This document shows positions 15,300 to 60,552 of a DNA stretch of 64,000 bases, in pieces. The DNA comes from an uncultured Mycoplasmatota bacterium. Lineage in GTDB: Bacteria; Bacillota_I; Bacilli_A; RF39; UBA660. A program made the position numbers and the translations under genes. Each line of letters starts with the position of its first letter. The stretch's first letter is position 1. The stretch lies in NCBI GenBank assembly GCA_946497955.1, contig CAMMMH010000001.1, positions 5,147 to 69,146 on the forward strand. Reading direction: 5' to 3'. The notes beneath the pieces are model-generated. The model ran no database searches and had not been told where the DNA came from. It saw only the letters and a program-made list of their open reading frames with translations.

Positions 15300-15500
15300 A
15301 TAACTTAAGGGAGTCTACAAGAAGTATACTCTGTACCACCTTAATTTATAGTTATTGTAACTAACTCATTATCTTAACGCGATCTTAACGCCTATAATTT
15401 TGTTATAGGAACTCCTAAGATGAATTCATAAACTATTCTTATCTATTTCCACCAACCATAGACTCTCTTTAAAGACATCGTTTACTACTACTTCTTAATC
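15300..15500 (-). promoter_or_regulatory. putative T-box leader (tRNA-sensing riboswitch) upstream of HAD-pheS-pheT
   Basis: Minus-strand AAATTAAGGTGGTACAGAG (15348-15330) matches the T-box consensus AATTAGGGTGGTACCGCG. An AGAGAG stem-I element and a TTC-containing loop lie upstream. A weak hairpin and T-rich tract follow before the RBS. Confidence 0.45.
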
Positions 15501-15557
15501 ATAGTCATTTCATGAATTACTATATCATATTTAAAAGTTAATTGTAAATAGAAAATA

Positions 15558-34751: not shown

Positions 34752-35450
34752 CTAAGAATTAACAATCCATTCAACAATTGTCTTCTTAAGAGAAAAATAT
34801 GTCTCTTTTTCATACTGCATATTACAAATACAATACTTTTTATTAGCAATATGAGAGCAGAACATACACTCATCAATGTTAAAGCAGTCTTGAATAAATA
34901 AAGAGTTACTTATTTTATTAGAACAAATAACACTATAGGAGTTACTACAATTATTAGAGTCATCTACTCTAATAGAAAAGGTACAATTTCCACTACGTTG
35001 AGAAGCTAATAAGAATTCACTTCTCCCACATCCATCACAAAATACTATATTTTTACAGTTAGAACAGTTAGTAGAATTATAGACATAACTAGAATCATAT
35101 ATAGTATCGCTTTTACTAACATATGTAGAATTATAACAACGCTCTGTAGTAATAGTATTAATCTCTTCCCAGGTATTAATTAATTCTTCTAATGAATTAA
35201 AATCTCTTTTTTCCATCATAAAGCCCTTACTACTATCTAAATTTTCCATATTATCTTTAGTAATAAATTTAGTAGCATTATCAAAATCAGTATATGTCTC
35301 TTCATGAGTTATACTATCATATACTTTTCGTGGCAGTTTAATATCAAAAGCATATTTTTTATAAATATCATCTAATGAATCTTTATTATCAACTAAAAAA
35401 ACCGCTTTAAATATCTTATTTATAATCACTAAAGCATCTTCCCTACTCAT
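34752..35450 (-). CDS. Cys-rich protein with multiple CxxC motifs, unknown function; partner of the upstream ATPase
   Basis: C-terminal 130 aa carries about 14 Cys in quasi-periodic CxxC pairs (CSNC, CDGC, CMFC, CIC). The start overlaps the upstream gene's stop by 8 nt. Confidence 0.5.
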   Translation of the reverse strand: MSREDALVIINKIFKAVFLVDNKDSLDDIYKKYAFDIKLPRKVYDSITHEETYTDFDNATKFITKDNMENLDSSKGFMMEKRDFNSLEELINTWEEINTITTERCYNSTYVSKSDTIYDSSYVYNSTNCSNCKNIVFCDGCGRSEFLLASQRSGNCTFSIRVDDSNNCSNSYSVICSNKISNSLFIQDCFNIDECMFCSHIANKKYCICNMQYEKETYFSLKKTIVEWIVNS

Positions 35451-37281
35451 ACTTATTACTTCCTTTTTTTCTGCTATTAGATAAAGTAATTAAAATATCT
35501 TTTAGTCTTTTTGTTGTAAAATTAGAAAAGCTTGTCTTAATACTAGTGGATATATTCTTAACAATATTTTCTTTGTTTCTCTTATCTCTAATTAATGGAA
35601 CTGCCACAAAATCAGTTGTTTTCGCTTTAACGACAGGAAGAATTTTACCATTCTTACTTATTCTTACTACAACTTCTCTATTATTTAAACCTGTAAGCAA
35701 GTTAATCTTATCATCATCAGTTACACTTCTTGCAAATTTAATATCTAAGATATCTTTTAATATAACTGCATCACTTCTTGAAGTTCTAAAAACATAATAA
35801 TTAATGACATTTGCAAAGATTGAGTCTTGTAACTTCTTACTAATCTGTCCAAAATACTGTTCTGTTAAAATAAGGGCGATATCAAACTTTCTTGCTTCTG
35901 ATAAAATTCTCTCCATAATAGGATTTTCAAGTAATGATACTTCATCGACAACTAAAATTAGTTTTTTATTTATTCTATTTTCAATAGCAGTTTCAAGTAT
36001 TTCTTCCATCACTAAAGAAGATATAGTCTTAACTATATTATCACCTAAAATACTTCTATCTAAAGAAAATATAGTTAAGTCATTATCTTTTATAACATCA
36101 CTTATGCCTATTTTTTTCTTCTCAAAAGTAGAAAACACTAACATCTCATCGATAAAACTAATTATAGGAGAAATACTCTCATTATAATAATTAGTCTTTA
36201 AATCATTAAACTCTGTTAAGAAAAAGGAAACAACTGTATCATTTAGTTTAGGAGTTAACTCTTTTACTAGATTATTACGATATTCTAAATCTAATAAGAC
36301 TTTTCTAATATTTAGAAATGAGAAATCTTCTTTGACAAGCAATAGATTAATTGTATATCTTAAGACTCTTTCTAATTTTAAATTATATCCATCTTTCATT
36401 AAGTTTTTAAACACTGATAATAACAGTTCATTTTTAATAACGATATCACTACTACTAGATAAAAACAAATCACAACTTTCATTAAAGAAATCTATTACTT
36501 TAGTCCTATCTAATCCTCCAATATCTTTTTCTATTGAAGCATGAGGGTCTATTACTACTACTTTATAATCATCACTATTTAACATTATATTCTTAATTAA
36601 AAGACTAATTAGTTTAGATTTACCACTTCCACTACTACCAACTATTAAGGAATGTTTAAAAAAGTCATAATCTTTATAATCAAGATATAAATCACTATTT
36701 AGATATGGAAAAGCATCAACACTAAAAATACCAGTATTATTACTAGTTAAAAGAGGTAATATTTTTTCTAAGTTTAAATACTTGTTTTTCTTCTCATAAG
36801 AAAATCTTTTATTATTACTAAAATCAACACTAAGTATGTAAGTAGGTCTTGCTAGCATAAATCTTCTTCTAATATAGTTATTACTATTTTTAAAGAATAA
36901 ATAAGTCTTAAATAGTCTCTTATTAAAAAAAGGAATGATATTAATAATAATATATTTAAGTTCCCTATTATGTTTTAATCTACTAATATCAGAAAGCTCT
37001 ACAGCATTTTTATCTACATCTAAAATAATAGGTTTATGTTTTAGATAATCTATCTCTATATTTATATCATCTTCTTTTATTAAAAAGTCATCCATGGAAT
37101 TTATTGTTGGTGGAACTTTATATTTAGTAACTAGATAATATTTAATTTTATTATTAAATATTTCTATAACTATTTTAAATTTTCTAAAATCCCCATTGTA
37201 TTTACATATATAATCTATTAATTCCTGCCAAGATTCTTTTGAAACATTATCTGTATTTAGATAAATAGATTGAACTACCAT
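35443..37281 (-). CDS. HerA/VirB4-like (FtsK-HerA superfamily, DUF87-type) P-loop ATPase with ~220-aa N-terminal domain
   Basis: Walker A IVGSSGSGKSKL. HerA-like VVVIDPHASIE follows. Walker B LILVVDEVSLL. Downstream EARKFDIALILTEQ...NYYVFRTS motifs match HerA/VirB4. AAAGGGGAG RBS. Confidence 0.6.
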   Translation of the reverse strand: MVVQSIYLNTDNVSKESWQELIDYICKYNGDFRKFKIVIEIFNNKIKYYLVTKYKVPPTINSMDDFLIKEDDINIEIDYLKHKPIILDVDKNAVELSDISRLKHNRELKYIIINIIPFFNKRLFKTYLFFKNSNNYIRRRFMLARPTYILSVDFSNNKRFSYEKKNKYLNLEKILPLLTSNNTGIFSVDAFPYLNSDLYLDYKDYDFFKHSLIVGSSGSGKSKLISLLIKNIMLNSDDYKVVVIDPHASIEKDIGGLDRTKVIDFFNESCDLFLSSSSDIVIKNELLLSVFKNLMKDGYNLKLERVLRYTINLLLVKEDFSFLNIRKVLLDLEYRNNLVKELTPKLNDTVVSFFLTEFNDLKTNYYNESISPIISFIDEMLVFSTFEKKKIGISDVIKDNDLTIFSLDRSILGDNIVKTISSLVMEEILETAIENRINKKLILVVDEVSLLENPIMERILSEARKFDIALILTEQYFGQISKKLQDSIFANVINYYVFRTSRSDAVILKDILDIKFARSVTDDDKINLLTGLNNREVVVRISKNGKILPVVKAKTTDFVAVPLIRDKRNKENIVKNISTSIKTSFSNFTTKRLKDILITLSNSRKKGSNKYE

Positions 37282-37326
37282 GTTAAAACTCCCCTTTAGT
37301 GAAGTTTAACATAGAACTAAAGGAAA

Positions 37327-37362
37327 AAACTGACATTTATATTCTATATTTTGTCAGTTTTT
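37327..37362. terminator. bidirectional hairpin terminator about 45 nt upstream of the ATPase start
   Basis: aaactgaca...tgtcagttt 9-bp stem flanked by an A-run and a T-run. Confidence 0.5.
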
Positions 37363-37514
37363 AAGACTATTAATTTATAGAAAAGTGTGATACAATACAT
37401 ATATGAAGAGTTTCTTCATAAAATAGAAATGAATACATCTATTAGAATAGATGCTTTCAAAAAAATGTGTTTTTTTAGATAACATCTAATTCCAAGAGAA
37501 ATTAGATGTTATTA

Positions 37515-37592
37515 TTATCTAAAGATTAAGGTGATAATAATGAATAACAAGATAATGATAATTATAAAATATGATTTTTCATGTTTGTTCAT
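37515..37592 (-). CDS. putative 25-aa hydrophobic peptide (MNKHEKSYFIIIIILLFIIITLIFR)
   Basis: AAAGGGG RBS 8 nt upstream; may be a chance ORF in AT-rich DNA. Confidence 0.25.
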   Translation of the reverse strand: MNKHEKSYFIIIIILLFIIITLIFR

Positions 37593-37676
37593 ATATCTTG
37601 CCCCTTTCTATAAGATTATAAATGTTATAGAAAGGCATCTAATTCCAAATAAATGTATTCGTATTTAGTGTAACAT

Positions 37677-37706
37677 AAAACTCGTATCTTTCATAGTACG
37701 AGTTTT
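37677..37706 (-). terminator. rho-independent terminator of the AraC-family gene
   Basis: actcgtatctttcatagtacgagt hairpin followed by TTTT. Confidence 0.6.
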
Positions 37707-37723
37707 CGTAAATTTATTTCTTG

Positions 37724-38518
37724 TTAATCTTCTATAGGTATTAAAAACTCTGTTATACCATCATGATAATATTCAAGCTCTGGTAAGGGTCTAATATTAT
37801 ATTGTAAATTTAAAAACATTGTTTTATAAAACTTTTGACTAACTCTCCTAATATCTTTCGCTTCCTGGGAATTTATTATAAAAACAATCCATTTACTCTT
37901 AGGAATAACATATTTAGATAATCCAGATAATTTTTCTTTATATAAACACCAATATTCAAAGTTATCACTAGTATATCTATCTTCATAAGTAACCATACCA
38001 TAATCAGGATGCTTATTAAATTTATTGATACATTCATCAAAAAATCTTGGGGCATCACTCTTAATAGTATCACTTGTAGTCTTAGTTCCTACTCCATATA
38101 AAGTAAATTCATCTAAAGATATAATGTTATATGTTAAATCACTACTATCAGTAACTTCCTCTTTAAAGACAATTCTAGGAAAAGTTTTAATACCTTTCTT
38201 TAAGTCTTTTGCCTTACTAGGTTTAATGCCATAGAACTTATAAAAAGCACGAGAAAAAGATGTTGGATTATCATAGTGATATTTAAGCGCAACATCTATT
38301 ACTTTCTCATTTTTTACAGTTAAATCATAAAAAGATAAAGTTAGTCTTCTTTTTCTAACATATTCTGTTATGGTATTATTACATAATAGACTAAAGAGTT
38401 TTTTAGCAGTATAGACATTAACTCCTAGAATTCTAGCGATTTTTTCATAGTCTATATCGCTTTCTAAATTATCTTCTATATGATCTATTACTTTATTTAA
38501 TTCATGATAAATATTCAT
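37724..38518 (-). CDS. AraC-family transcriptional regulator with C-terminal GyrI-like effector-binding domain
   Basis: N-terminal AraC HTH pair (YEKIARILGVNVYTAKKLF...YHYDNPTSFSRAFYKFYGIKP) and C-terminal GyrI-like fold. Confidence 0.75.
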   Translation of the reverse strand: MNIYHELNKVIDHIEDNLESDIDYEKIARILGVNVYTAKKLFSLLCNNTITEYVRKRRLTLSFYDLTVKNEKVIDVALKYHYDNPTSFSRAFYKFYGIKPSKAKDLKKGIKTFPRIVFKEEVTDSSDLTYNIISLDEFTLYGVGTKTTSDTIKSDAPRFFDECINKFNKHPDYGMVTYEDRYTSDNFEYWCLYKEKLSGLSKYVIPKSKWIVFIINSQEAKDIRRVSQKFYKTMFLNLQYNIRPLPELEYYHDGITEFLIPIED

Positions 38519-38520
38519 AA

Positions 38521-38892
38521 TTATTTAATTTCAGTAAGCCAAAGACTATGTAAATTACAATAAGCATAGATTTTATTATATGATTTATCATAAGGAAAAC
38601 TTGCTTCTGGTTTATCTCCTGCTTTTAACTTCTTAATCATATAATTATCATCACTTGCAAGAATTATAAAGGAAATATAATGTTCATCTGTCATTGGATG
38701 TTCTACTTCTCCTACTTTGATATTAATCATTCCATCTTTAATCTCATATACTGGTAAATGTTTTTCAGTAGCCGCTTCAGTTGTGTTCGCTTCAACTAAT
38801 GTCATCTTTTCACCACAGCATACTAAAGCCTCACTTTTATCTTCTAACTTTAATATAACATTTCCACATTTTTTACATACATAAATTTTCAT
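38521..38892 (-). CDS. dfx: desulfoferrodoxin (superoxide reductase)
   Basis: N-terminal desulforedoxin CxxC...CC centre and C-terminal His/Cys neelaredoxin centre. Confidence 0.8.
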   Translation of the reverse strand: MKIYVCKKCGNVILKLEDKSEALVCCGEKMTLVEANTTEAATEKHLPVYEIKDGMINIKVGEVEHPMTDEHYISFIILASDDNYMIKKLKAGDKPEASFPYDKSYNKIYAYCNLHSLWLTEIK

Positions 38893-60465: not shown

Positions 60466-60552
60466 TGGTGCAGGAAACGAGACTCGAACTCGCACGATTA
60501 ACTAATCACTACCCCCTCAAAGTAGTGCGTCTACCTATTCCGCCATTCCTGC
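60466..60552 (-). tRNA. tRNA-Leu (anticodon GAG), type II with long variable arm
   Basis: Hand-folded cloverleaf: acceptor stem GCAGGAA/TTCCTGC, anticodon stem CTACT/GGTAG, loop TTGAGGG, T-arm GCGAG-TTCGAGT-CTCGT, encoded CCA end. Confidence 0.8.

Follow-up and report, generated by a model that had tools for sequence, protein, structure and literature searches.

Motors of the FtsK/HerA superfamily serve several described prokaryotic systems, and in each of them the ATPase has its own company: HerA is paired with Sir2 in Nezha, with DUF4297 or with NurA; DptH/DndH belongs to Dnd/Dpt restriction; and VirB4 and TrwB work in type IV secretion. A further system, MADS, is a methylation-associated defence operon of eight genes, mad1 to mad8 (bioRxiv 10.1101/2023.03.30.534895). 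The locus under study here lies in a 64-kb stretch of DNA from an uncultured Mycoplasmatota bacterium (contig CAMMMH010000001.1), hereafter the window, and consists of three genes on the minus strand. The first encodes a Rob-type regulator (264 aa, 37724..38518) with an AraC-family double helix-turn-helix (HTH) and a GyrI-like/Cass2 effector-binding domain, the second an ATPase (612 aa, 35443..37281; an open reading frame (ORF) read from the window sequence), and the third a partner protein (232 aa, 34752..35450), the ORF of an unannotated family. An earlier reading of the bare sequence, the original prediction, had described an FtsK/HerA ATPase of 612 aa followed, with an overlap of 8 nt, by a cysteine-rich protein of 232 aa, and both ORFs are exactly as it described them. 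The module is genuine, conserved and unclassified, an FtsK/HerA-type ATPase with a dedicated partner, and is unlikely to be a zinc-ribbon system or a defence island of the usual kind. The reading that we favour, with a probability of about 40%, is that of a ligand-controlled operon for a ring-forming VirB4/DptH/HerA-like motor that would act on DNA or nucleoprotein together with a rigid solenoid adaptor or regulator.

The extent of the module follows from its relatives in gut bacteria. Relatives of the partner occur in at least 283 species genomes (one genome per species was scanned), all of them uncultured gut 'Bacilli' or 'Tenericutes' metagenome-assembled genomes (MAGs), including Ca. Coprovivens, CAG:582 and one closed 1.5-Mb chromosome; we take these genomes to be the GTDB order RF39, and Candidatus Coprovivens is placed by NCBI in Bacilli incertae sedis. 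Full-length homologues of either protein number in the hundreds and hardly vary in length; conservation is higher for the partner, at about 60% identity, than for the ATPase, at about 46%. Eighty related loci were fetched for a comparison of neighbourhoods. The ATPase gene lies directly upstream of the partner gene in 79 of the 80, the exception being a locus cut 162 bp from the gene, and an AraC/GyrI gene stands directly upstream of the ATPase gene on the same strand in 71. All-against-all clustering of the neighbouring ORFs finds just the regulator, the ATPase and the partner conserved; greA, dfx, dnaE and the other neighbours seen in the window are confined to the 16 closest genomes. The unit is thus a three-gene module whose members are inherited together. 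The original prediction had drawn a two-gene module between core genes: the pair is real and the neighbours are as named (greA downstream, the AraC-HTH plus GyrI-like/Cass2 regulator and the desulfoferrodoxin gene dfx upstream), but the regulator belongs to the unit, and greA and dfx do not accompany it past the 16 nearest relatives. That the pair should hold together as a unit elsewhere was one of the points on which the prediction had staked itself, and there it stands. The ATPase and partner genes are translationally coupled: their ORFs share nucleotides in 60 of 78 loci and are at most 7 nt apart in 17 more (77 of 78 together), and in the window the start of the partner gene, preceded by a plausible ribosome-binding site, overlaps the ATPase stop by 8 nt (ATGAGTAG). 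The GC content of the pair, about 25%, is that of the flanking DNA.

All three genes are under purifying selection of the strength seen in housekeeping genes. The partner has a ratio of non-synonymous to synonymous substitution (dN/dS) of 0.06-0.14, the ATPase one of 0.12-0.17 and the regulator one of 0.10-0.12; for comparison, dnaE has 0.11-0.15, trmL 0.04-0.10 and dfx 0.14-0.23. The locus is stable in all 16 nearest species, and the neighbours that recur, judged by the look of their sequences only (HisRS-like, thymidine-kinase-like, PPDK-like, SDR and Ham1-like), are of housekeeping type, not defence or mobile genes.

The linkage of ATPase and partner recurs across bacteria and Micrarchaeota, usually with an HTH regulator. 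On a 449-kb contig of a distant bacterium of 46% GC (L086/L087), AraC/GyrI, ATPase and partner genes follow one another in the same order with a 4-nt overlap between the last two, and the ATPase matches the RF39 profile over its full length (E 3.5e-66). Elsewhere an HTH gene and an ATPase gene are followed by seven partner paralogues of about 242 aa (L088), or the ATPase-partner pair is found as overlapping ORFs (L090). A Patescibacteria MAG (GCA_026004435.1, L084:6285-7991) has the ATPase as ORFs of 354 and 210 aa, then the partner, without an AraC gene; the ATPase is split within its all-alpha insertion and its IDPHA motif reads IDHA, so the gene may truly be split, may have decayed into a pseudogene or may owe its form to an error of assembly. 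In Candidatus Micrarchaeota, members of the DPANN archaea, the relatives of the partner are proteins of about 525 aa with two tandem domains, several per genome. In three Micrarchaeota loci all unannotated genes of 252-262 aa and 521-540 aa belong to the partner family (E 1e-13 to 1e-36), the paralogues stand in arrays with overlapping ORFs, and the adjacent convergent ATPase is orthologous to the bacterial one, N-terminal domain included (E 9e-60 against the bacterial profile; 30% identity over 458 aa). A scan of metagenomes added 74 loci, 21 of them at least 12 kb long. Ten of these 21 hold arrays of four to nine paralogues, flanked by the ATPase gene in eight cases (in seven it follows the 3' end and is on the opposite strand, in L158 it stands at the 5' end and shares the strand of the array) and accompanied by an HTH_10 regulator in six; ten further loci have solitary partner copies with no ATPase within 10 kb. 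A 629-kb archaeal contig (Ga0265297_10000030; L118, L129, L132) combines an array of at least nine two-domain paralogues, that is 18 domains, with two solitary copies elsewhere, and the partner family makes up a notable share of a small genome. Several archaeal ATPases (L108, L111, L114, L128 and L139) reach 860-919 aa through disordered C-terminal tails of 300 aa, in which an acidic stretch rich in Glu, Asp and Pro precedes a basic end rich in Lys, Ala and Pro that resembles histone-H1-like DNA-binding tails.

The ATPase itself falls into three parts. An orphan alpha/beta domain at the N-terminus (aa 1 to about 200; 36682..37281, minus strand) is confident in the predicted structure and has no sequence relative; a VirB4/DptH/TrwB/HerA-like motor with an all-alpha insertion occupies aa ~205-560; and a poorly modelled C-terminal tail carries the subfamily-conserved motif LKDILI..S.SRK. 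The Walker A motif GSSGSGKS (aa 215-222; 36616..36639, minus strand) can be read directly from the sequence, and among 22 homologues G215, S217, G218, G220, K221 and S222 are invariant. The acidic pair D446-E447 of Walker B (within LILVVDE; 35941..35946, minus strand) is likewise invariant in the alignment of homologues, as are the SEARK and QY motifs, and both Walker motifs are conserved in the archaeal orthologue. From these invariant motifs the enzyme is probably catalytically intact and active. The protein passes the Pfam cut-offs for the DUF87/HerA central domain and for TrwB_AAD_bind, and its Walker motifs, arginine and sensor motifs and fold are all those of the FtsK/HerA P-loop superfamily. 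Its closest structural relatives are the C-terminal domain of DptH/DndH (7es4, score 28.6), VirB4 (4ag5, 28.6), HerA (4d2i, 24.4), TrwB (1e9r, 24.2) and FtsK, and IcmO/DotL, Cag5 and EccC also belong to its structural relatives. Profile and structure comparison thus bear out its predicted place in the FtsK/HerA/VirB4 superfamily and the orphan status of its N-terminal domain.

The prediction that the locus would not fit any characterised HerA, VirB4, Sir2, DUF4297 or NurA system is borne out by family searches and by the survey of neighbours. Neither the window region nor the conserved neighbours of the 80 loci showed a NurA, Sir2 or DUF4297 gene, and the partner is none of these proteins and carries no enzymatic signature. 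The module further differs from the HerA systems in an N-terminal domain without sequence match, a transcription regulator of its own, and a core-like context and mode of selection. The score against NCBIfam HerA_antiphage is 21.5 bits where the cut-off is 800, and the PADLOC HerA models match the ATPase over the P-loop region or the C-terminal ~85 residues only. With Dnd/Dpt restriction the likeness is to the C-terminal motor of DptH/DndH, and no DptF, DptG or dnd genes lie near the module. Neither a relaxase nor VirB/Tra genes are found nearby, and unlike VirB4 and TrwB of type IV secretion the ATPase has no membrane anchor. It has no phage matches, its plasmid matches are weak and partial (24-26% identity, below 50% coverage), and a search of viral structures (BFVD) returned generic P-loop relatives only, at about 12% identity. 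The best match in the defence libraries is to mad8 of MADS in PADLOC (E 3.3e-18), limited to the P-loop motor at residues 209-530; the other mad genes are absent, and the module has three genes instead of eight.

These comparisons bear on whether the module is an anti-phage or anti-plasmid defence system, in which a HerA-like motor would sense or translocate invading nucleic acid and the partner would be sensor or effector. Such a role is favoured by the kinship of the motor with components of defence systems, by the scattered occurrence across domains, and by the paralogue arrays and orphan copies of archaeal genomes. However, the module genes show no sign of a nuclease, Sir2, TIR or protease domain or of any other effector domain, and the partner is absent from 50,697 phages (INPHARED), 72,556 plasmids (PLSDB) and the IMG/VR contigs. 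The housekeeping look of the recurrent neighbours, the stability of a locus kept in so many species, and a dN/dS as low as that of dnaE, without a diversifying signal, argue in the same direction; the island or mobile context, sporadic presence and fast evolution by which defence systems are generally recognised were not found. The original prediction had likened the pair to those of nucleic-acid-targeting defence systems. Beyond the relatives of the motor no positive evidence for this emerged, and a classical defence island is disfavoured by the context, by the mode of selection and by the absence from mobile elements, so that we regard a defence role as unlikely, albeit the least unlikely of the alternatives weighed here.

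The partner protein consists of a helical N-terminal domain (aa 1 to ~105), a repeat region (aa ~106-210; 34821..35135, minus strand) and a C-terminal helix (aa ~211-232). It has no match in Pfam, NCBIfam or PADLOC and a weak one in PHROGs (E 0.019). Profiles built from 15 and from 57 members found nothing significant in the Protein Data Bank (PDB), and neither did the 57 members searched singly against Pfam at E up to 5, nor 10 distant members in addition. The family is nonetheless large, with 906 homologues of the partner and, by exhaustive profile search, 745 representative clusters at 50% identity. Over residues ~106-200 the sequence keeps a strict period of 3, a hexapeptide S-x-N-V-x-x that turns into C-x-x-C-x-x near the end, with a period-3 power of 39.9 that 0 of 5000 shuffles reach; the N-terminal half gives no such signal. 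A second regularity comes from covariation, computed as mutual information with average product correction over 627 copies below 80% identity: 15 of the 60 top pairs are separated by exactly 12 residues, against 0.8 expected (P = 2e-15). Some of these pairs are oppositely charged by their commonest residues (K133-E145, R170-D182), others are Asn or Tyr (110-122-134). The C-terminal segment provides an internal control: its top pairs run from i to i+4, as in a helix. From the period-3 ladder and the i to i+12 covariation we infer that the repeat region is a solenoid of eight to nine stacked coils of 12 residues, each with four inward positions.

This predicted architecture bears on how the cysteines are read. 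Twelve of the 13 in the partner lie in the repeat region, where the ladder is built of Ser and Val in its first part and of Cys in its last. Among 284 non-redundant domain copies no column exceeds 60% Cys (maximum 0.60); the cysteines exchange with Ser, Ala, Val and Leu, a repeat region may hold none or as many as 16 of them, with the highest counts in archaeal copies, and one whole paralogue has no cysteine at all. Since Cys, Ser and Val share one period-3 register, the cysteines behave as structural ladder positions. The predicted 'Zn-ribbon-rich' character of the partner therefore fails at the level of the family: no set of four Cys/His ligands is conserved family-wide, and judged by its sequences the partner is not a zinc-ribbon protein. 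The same observations make it improbable, more so than any other alternative considered, that the partner is a metal, Fe-S or redox protein matured by the ATPase or serving it as a redox or metal sensor, and there is no match to a zinc-ribbon, ferredoxin or other metal-binding family. What favours such a role, besides the cysteine-rich archaeal copies, is the gut-Bacilli subfamily, in which eight cysteines, including the pairs C138/C141 and C195/C198, and one histidine (H200) are invariant, and where a lineage-specific metal site is accordingly possible. The only columns conserved to at least 90% across 57 diverse members are F197, N210 and Y218, which do not form a catalytic signature.

The nearest likeness to the predicted coils is found among insect proteins. 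The antifreeze protein of Tenebrio molitor (1ezg) is a beta-helix of 12-residue coils with the repeat TCTxSxxCxxAx, and it shares with the partner the coil length, the small inward residue at every third position and the Cys ladders. The match is not significant (E 4.5) and no homology is detectable, so the likeness is one of analogy; the partner differs in being a cytoplasmic prokaryotic protein with helical flanking domains, a ladder mostly of Ser and Val, and coils that are predicted. A functional analogy may be drawn with MfpA/MfpB, a pentapeptide-repeat solenoid with a GTPase, and with GyrI-type proteins, which sense gyrase poisons: there a rigid solenoid and a nucleotide hydrolase meet on a DNA enzyme, next to a GyrI-like ligand sensor. 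The analogy extends to function alone, as the MfpA solenoid has 20 residues per coil instead of 12, the NTPase is of another class, and the partners of the module are soluble and mildly acidic to neutral, with a median isoelectric point of 5.9. This mild acidity also led us to down-weight the idea that the partner is a DNA mimic.

A solenoid with terminal helices could also polymerise or form a scaffold, as bactofilins or MinC do, and be remodelled or positioned by the ATPase in a cytoskeletal, scaffolding or chromosome-organising system. Housekeeping-like selection, conservation throughout the lineage and the multiple Micrarchaeota paralogues, whose overlapping ORFs are taken to be co-expressed, would suit this. 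Against it, a dedicated ligand-sensing regulator suggests conditional over constitutive expression, the partner has no homology to bactofilin or MinC, and we know of no FtsK/HerA-type motor that has a cytoskeletal solenoid as its partner; this role thus appears quite improbable.

A role in secretion or substrate handling is hardly better placed. Here the ATPase would act like a type IV coupling protein or EccC, and the solenoid proteins would be cargo that is recognised, unfolded or exported. The TrwB_AAD_bind match above cut-off and the presence of TrwB, IcmO/DotL, Cag5, VirB4 and EccC among the structural relatives are in keeping with this, and a cargo role would explain why archaeal genomes pair one ATPase with four to nine arrayed paralogues and with dispersed ones. 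Two loci of episymbionts (L081:1661-4768 of Micrarchaeota and L084:159-5530 of Patescibacteria) have T2SSE/T2SSF or N_methyl pilin genes within a few kb of the module, a closeness to genes of type IV pilus or archaellum type that may be coincidence, as there are two cases only. On the other side, no transmembrane segment is found in the ATPase of the window (maximum 19-residue Kyte-Doolittle mean 1.09), in six of seven archaeal orthologues checked (L110 has one borderline window, 1.75 at residue 32) or in the partner, which also lacks an N-terminal hydrophobic stretch. Nor is any channel, pilus or membrane component conserved beside the module in the 80 bacterial loci, and the bacterial subfamily has a single, highly conserved partner, unlike diversified effectors.

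The product of the first gene of the module, the regulator, exceeds the Pfam cut-offs for HTH_18 (48.9 bits), HTH_AraC (32.9) and Cass2 (35.6), and scores 18.1 bits for the GyrI-like family. Its nearest solved relatives are RamA, MarA, SoxS and Rob, and with its double HTH and GyrI-like domain it is an AraC/XylS regulator of Rob type. It shares the two-domain architecture of Rob from E. coli; unlike Rob, it is dedicated to one adjacent operon and is associated with a dyad element instead of a known marbox. In the window this dyad has the form AAAACTGAC-N18-GTCAGTTTT, followed by a run of T (37325..37362, minus strand), and lies 47 nt upstream of the ATPase start; its core, ACTGAC-N18-GTCAGT, spans 37329..37358. 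The pattern ACTGAC-N(12-20)-GTCAGT has a single match in the window against 0 expected. Exactly one copy of the dyad is present in 53 of the 80 loci, always just before the ATPase gene, even where other genes separate AraC from ATPase. In most loci the spacer between the AraC and ATPase genes measures about 77 nt and is laid out as the dyad AAACTGAC-N15-17-GTCAGTTTTTT, an extended -10-like element TGnTATAcT and a ribosome-binding site GAGGTG; the last two, the former about 20 nt after the dyad, are conserved in an alignment of 45 spacers. Together with the window sequence, this alignment points to a putative extended -10 box TGTTAAACT at 37303..37311 and a putative ribosome-binding site of the ATPase gene, AAAGGGGAG, at 37289..37297, both on the minus strand. 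As RNA the dyad folds with -10.5 kcal/mol (z = -3.4). The stem keeps its sequence between loci and a U-run comes after it, for which reason the element may be an operator, a terminator-insulator or both. The modules outside RF39 do not share the RF39-type dyad, and L087 carries a different one.

In the operon that we favour, the ATPase would form a ring, as its structural relatives do, and would work on DNA or nucleoprotein. The partner would dock on the motor as a stiff, rod-like adaptor or regulator, being neither an enzyme nor a zinc-ribbon nuclease, and its amounts would be coupled to those of the motor. The regulator would turn the operon on upon a small-molecule signal, acting at or near the dyad and the promoter upstream of the ATPase gene. 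We think that a DNA-maintenance or stress function maintained by the lineage is more likely than a mobile anti-phage system. Several observations pull the other way. The VirB4- and EccC-type relatives of the ATPase handle proteins, and the AlphaFold2 model of the partner, built from a 15-sequence alignment, has a mean predicted local confidence (pLDDT) of 42.5. Rob, MarA and SoxS bind asymmetric sites as monomers, and the dyad may therefore be only a sequence-conserved terminator. The regulators are not orthologous between lineages but belong to AraC/GyrI, HTH_10 and HTH_23 types, and the two AraC/GyrI proteins that were compared align over the HTH only. Finally, the scattered spread over gut Bacilli, one MAG of the candidate phyla radiation, one other bacterium and DPANN archaea implies that the module has moved horizontally, and arrays of paralogues accompanied by dispersed orphan copies are seen in conflict and secretion systems as well.

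Taken more broadly, the module might be a previously undescribed system that crosses the domains, in which an HTH regulator is combined with a soluble VirB4/DptH-like ATPase with an orphan N-domain and with one to nine solenoid proteins, maintained as a near-core operon in RF39-type gut Bacilli and in Micrarchaeota and acting unlike any known FtsK/HerA system. The thin, rigid solenoid might, for example, serve the ring motor as a nucleic-acid-like rod or as a regulator that engages its pore. We propose this tentatively, and the odds stand against the module being new in kind. Literature on Micrarchaeota, RF39, DPANN, HerA/FtsK/DUF87, GyrI-like/AraC and MADS yielded no account of it. Should the proposal be right, the 745 clusters would constitute an unannotated protein family without a relative in Pfam, NCBIfam, PADLOC or the PDB, and the partner a new fold family in the prokaryotic cytoplasm; to our knowledge, tight solenoids with 12-residue coils have been described mainly in insect antifreeze proteins. 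It would also add a new class of partner for FtsK/HerA-type motors, conserved together with its own regulator in lineages that range from gut Bacilli to DPANN archaea. In Micrarchaeota, whose genomes measure about 1 Mb, the module occupies about 10 kb and is therefore probably important to organisms that keep few genes. The analysis also corrects an easy mis-annotation, since a HerA-like protein next to a CxxC-rich one and an otherwise unassigned context would be filed as candidate defence with a zinc-ribbon effector. Being small and self-contained and carrying a candidate operator, the operon is open to direct test by heterologous expression.

Some features of the locus are peculiar to the window or to a few relatives. 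The AraC-ATPase spacer, about 77 nt elsewhere, is 442 nt long in the window and 376-452 nt in the window and its nearest relatives taken together. The additional stretch (37362..37723, minus strand) contains two hairpins, one close behind the AraC stop codon (37680..37700, -7.7 kcal/mol) and another, very stable and with an A-run, at 37470..37512 (-16.9 kcal/mol, z = -7), as well as a repeated GGAATTAGATG motif. It also holds a mini-ORF for a hydrophobic peptide of 25 aa (MNKHEKSYFIIIIILLFIIITLIFR) with its own ribosome-binding site, which was rejected as a component of the module because it is present solely in the two nearest relatives (L001 and L002). In two other loci, ORFs that look like TnpB/OrfB (L003:4579-5727) and like a transposase (L006:4724-6076), by their sequence features only, are inserted between the AraC/GyrI and ATPase genes; both sit upstream of the dyad, which remains attached to the ATPase gene. 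The same protein of about 315 aa (cluster 45) occupies this position in three loci (L030:5132-6100, L044:5154-6095 and L047:5150-6088) and could be an occasional fourth gene of the module. On the upstream side, dfx (38521..38892) stops 2 nt ahead of the AraC/GyrI start codon, and this gap (38518..38521) suggests co-transcription of the two genes in the lineage of the window only, and in distant loci dfx is unlinked to the module. Elsewhere in the window, the sole Rfam matches at gathering threshold are a T-box leader (103.6 bits; 15304..15511, minus strand) and one tRNA gene (60469..60552, minus strand).

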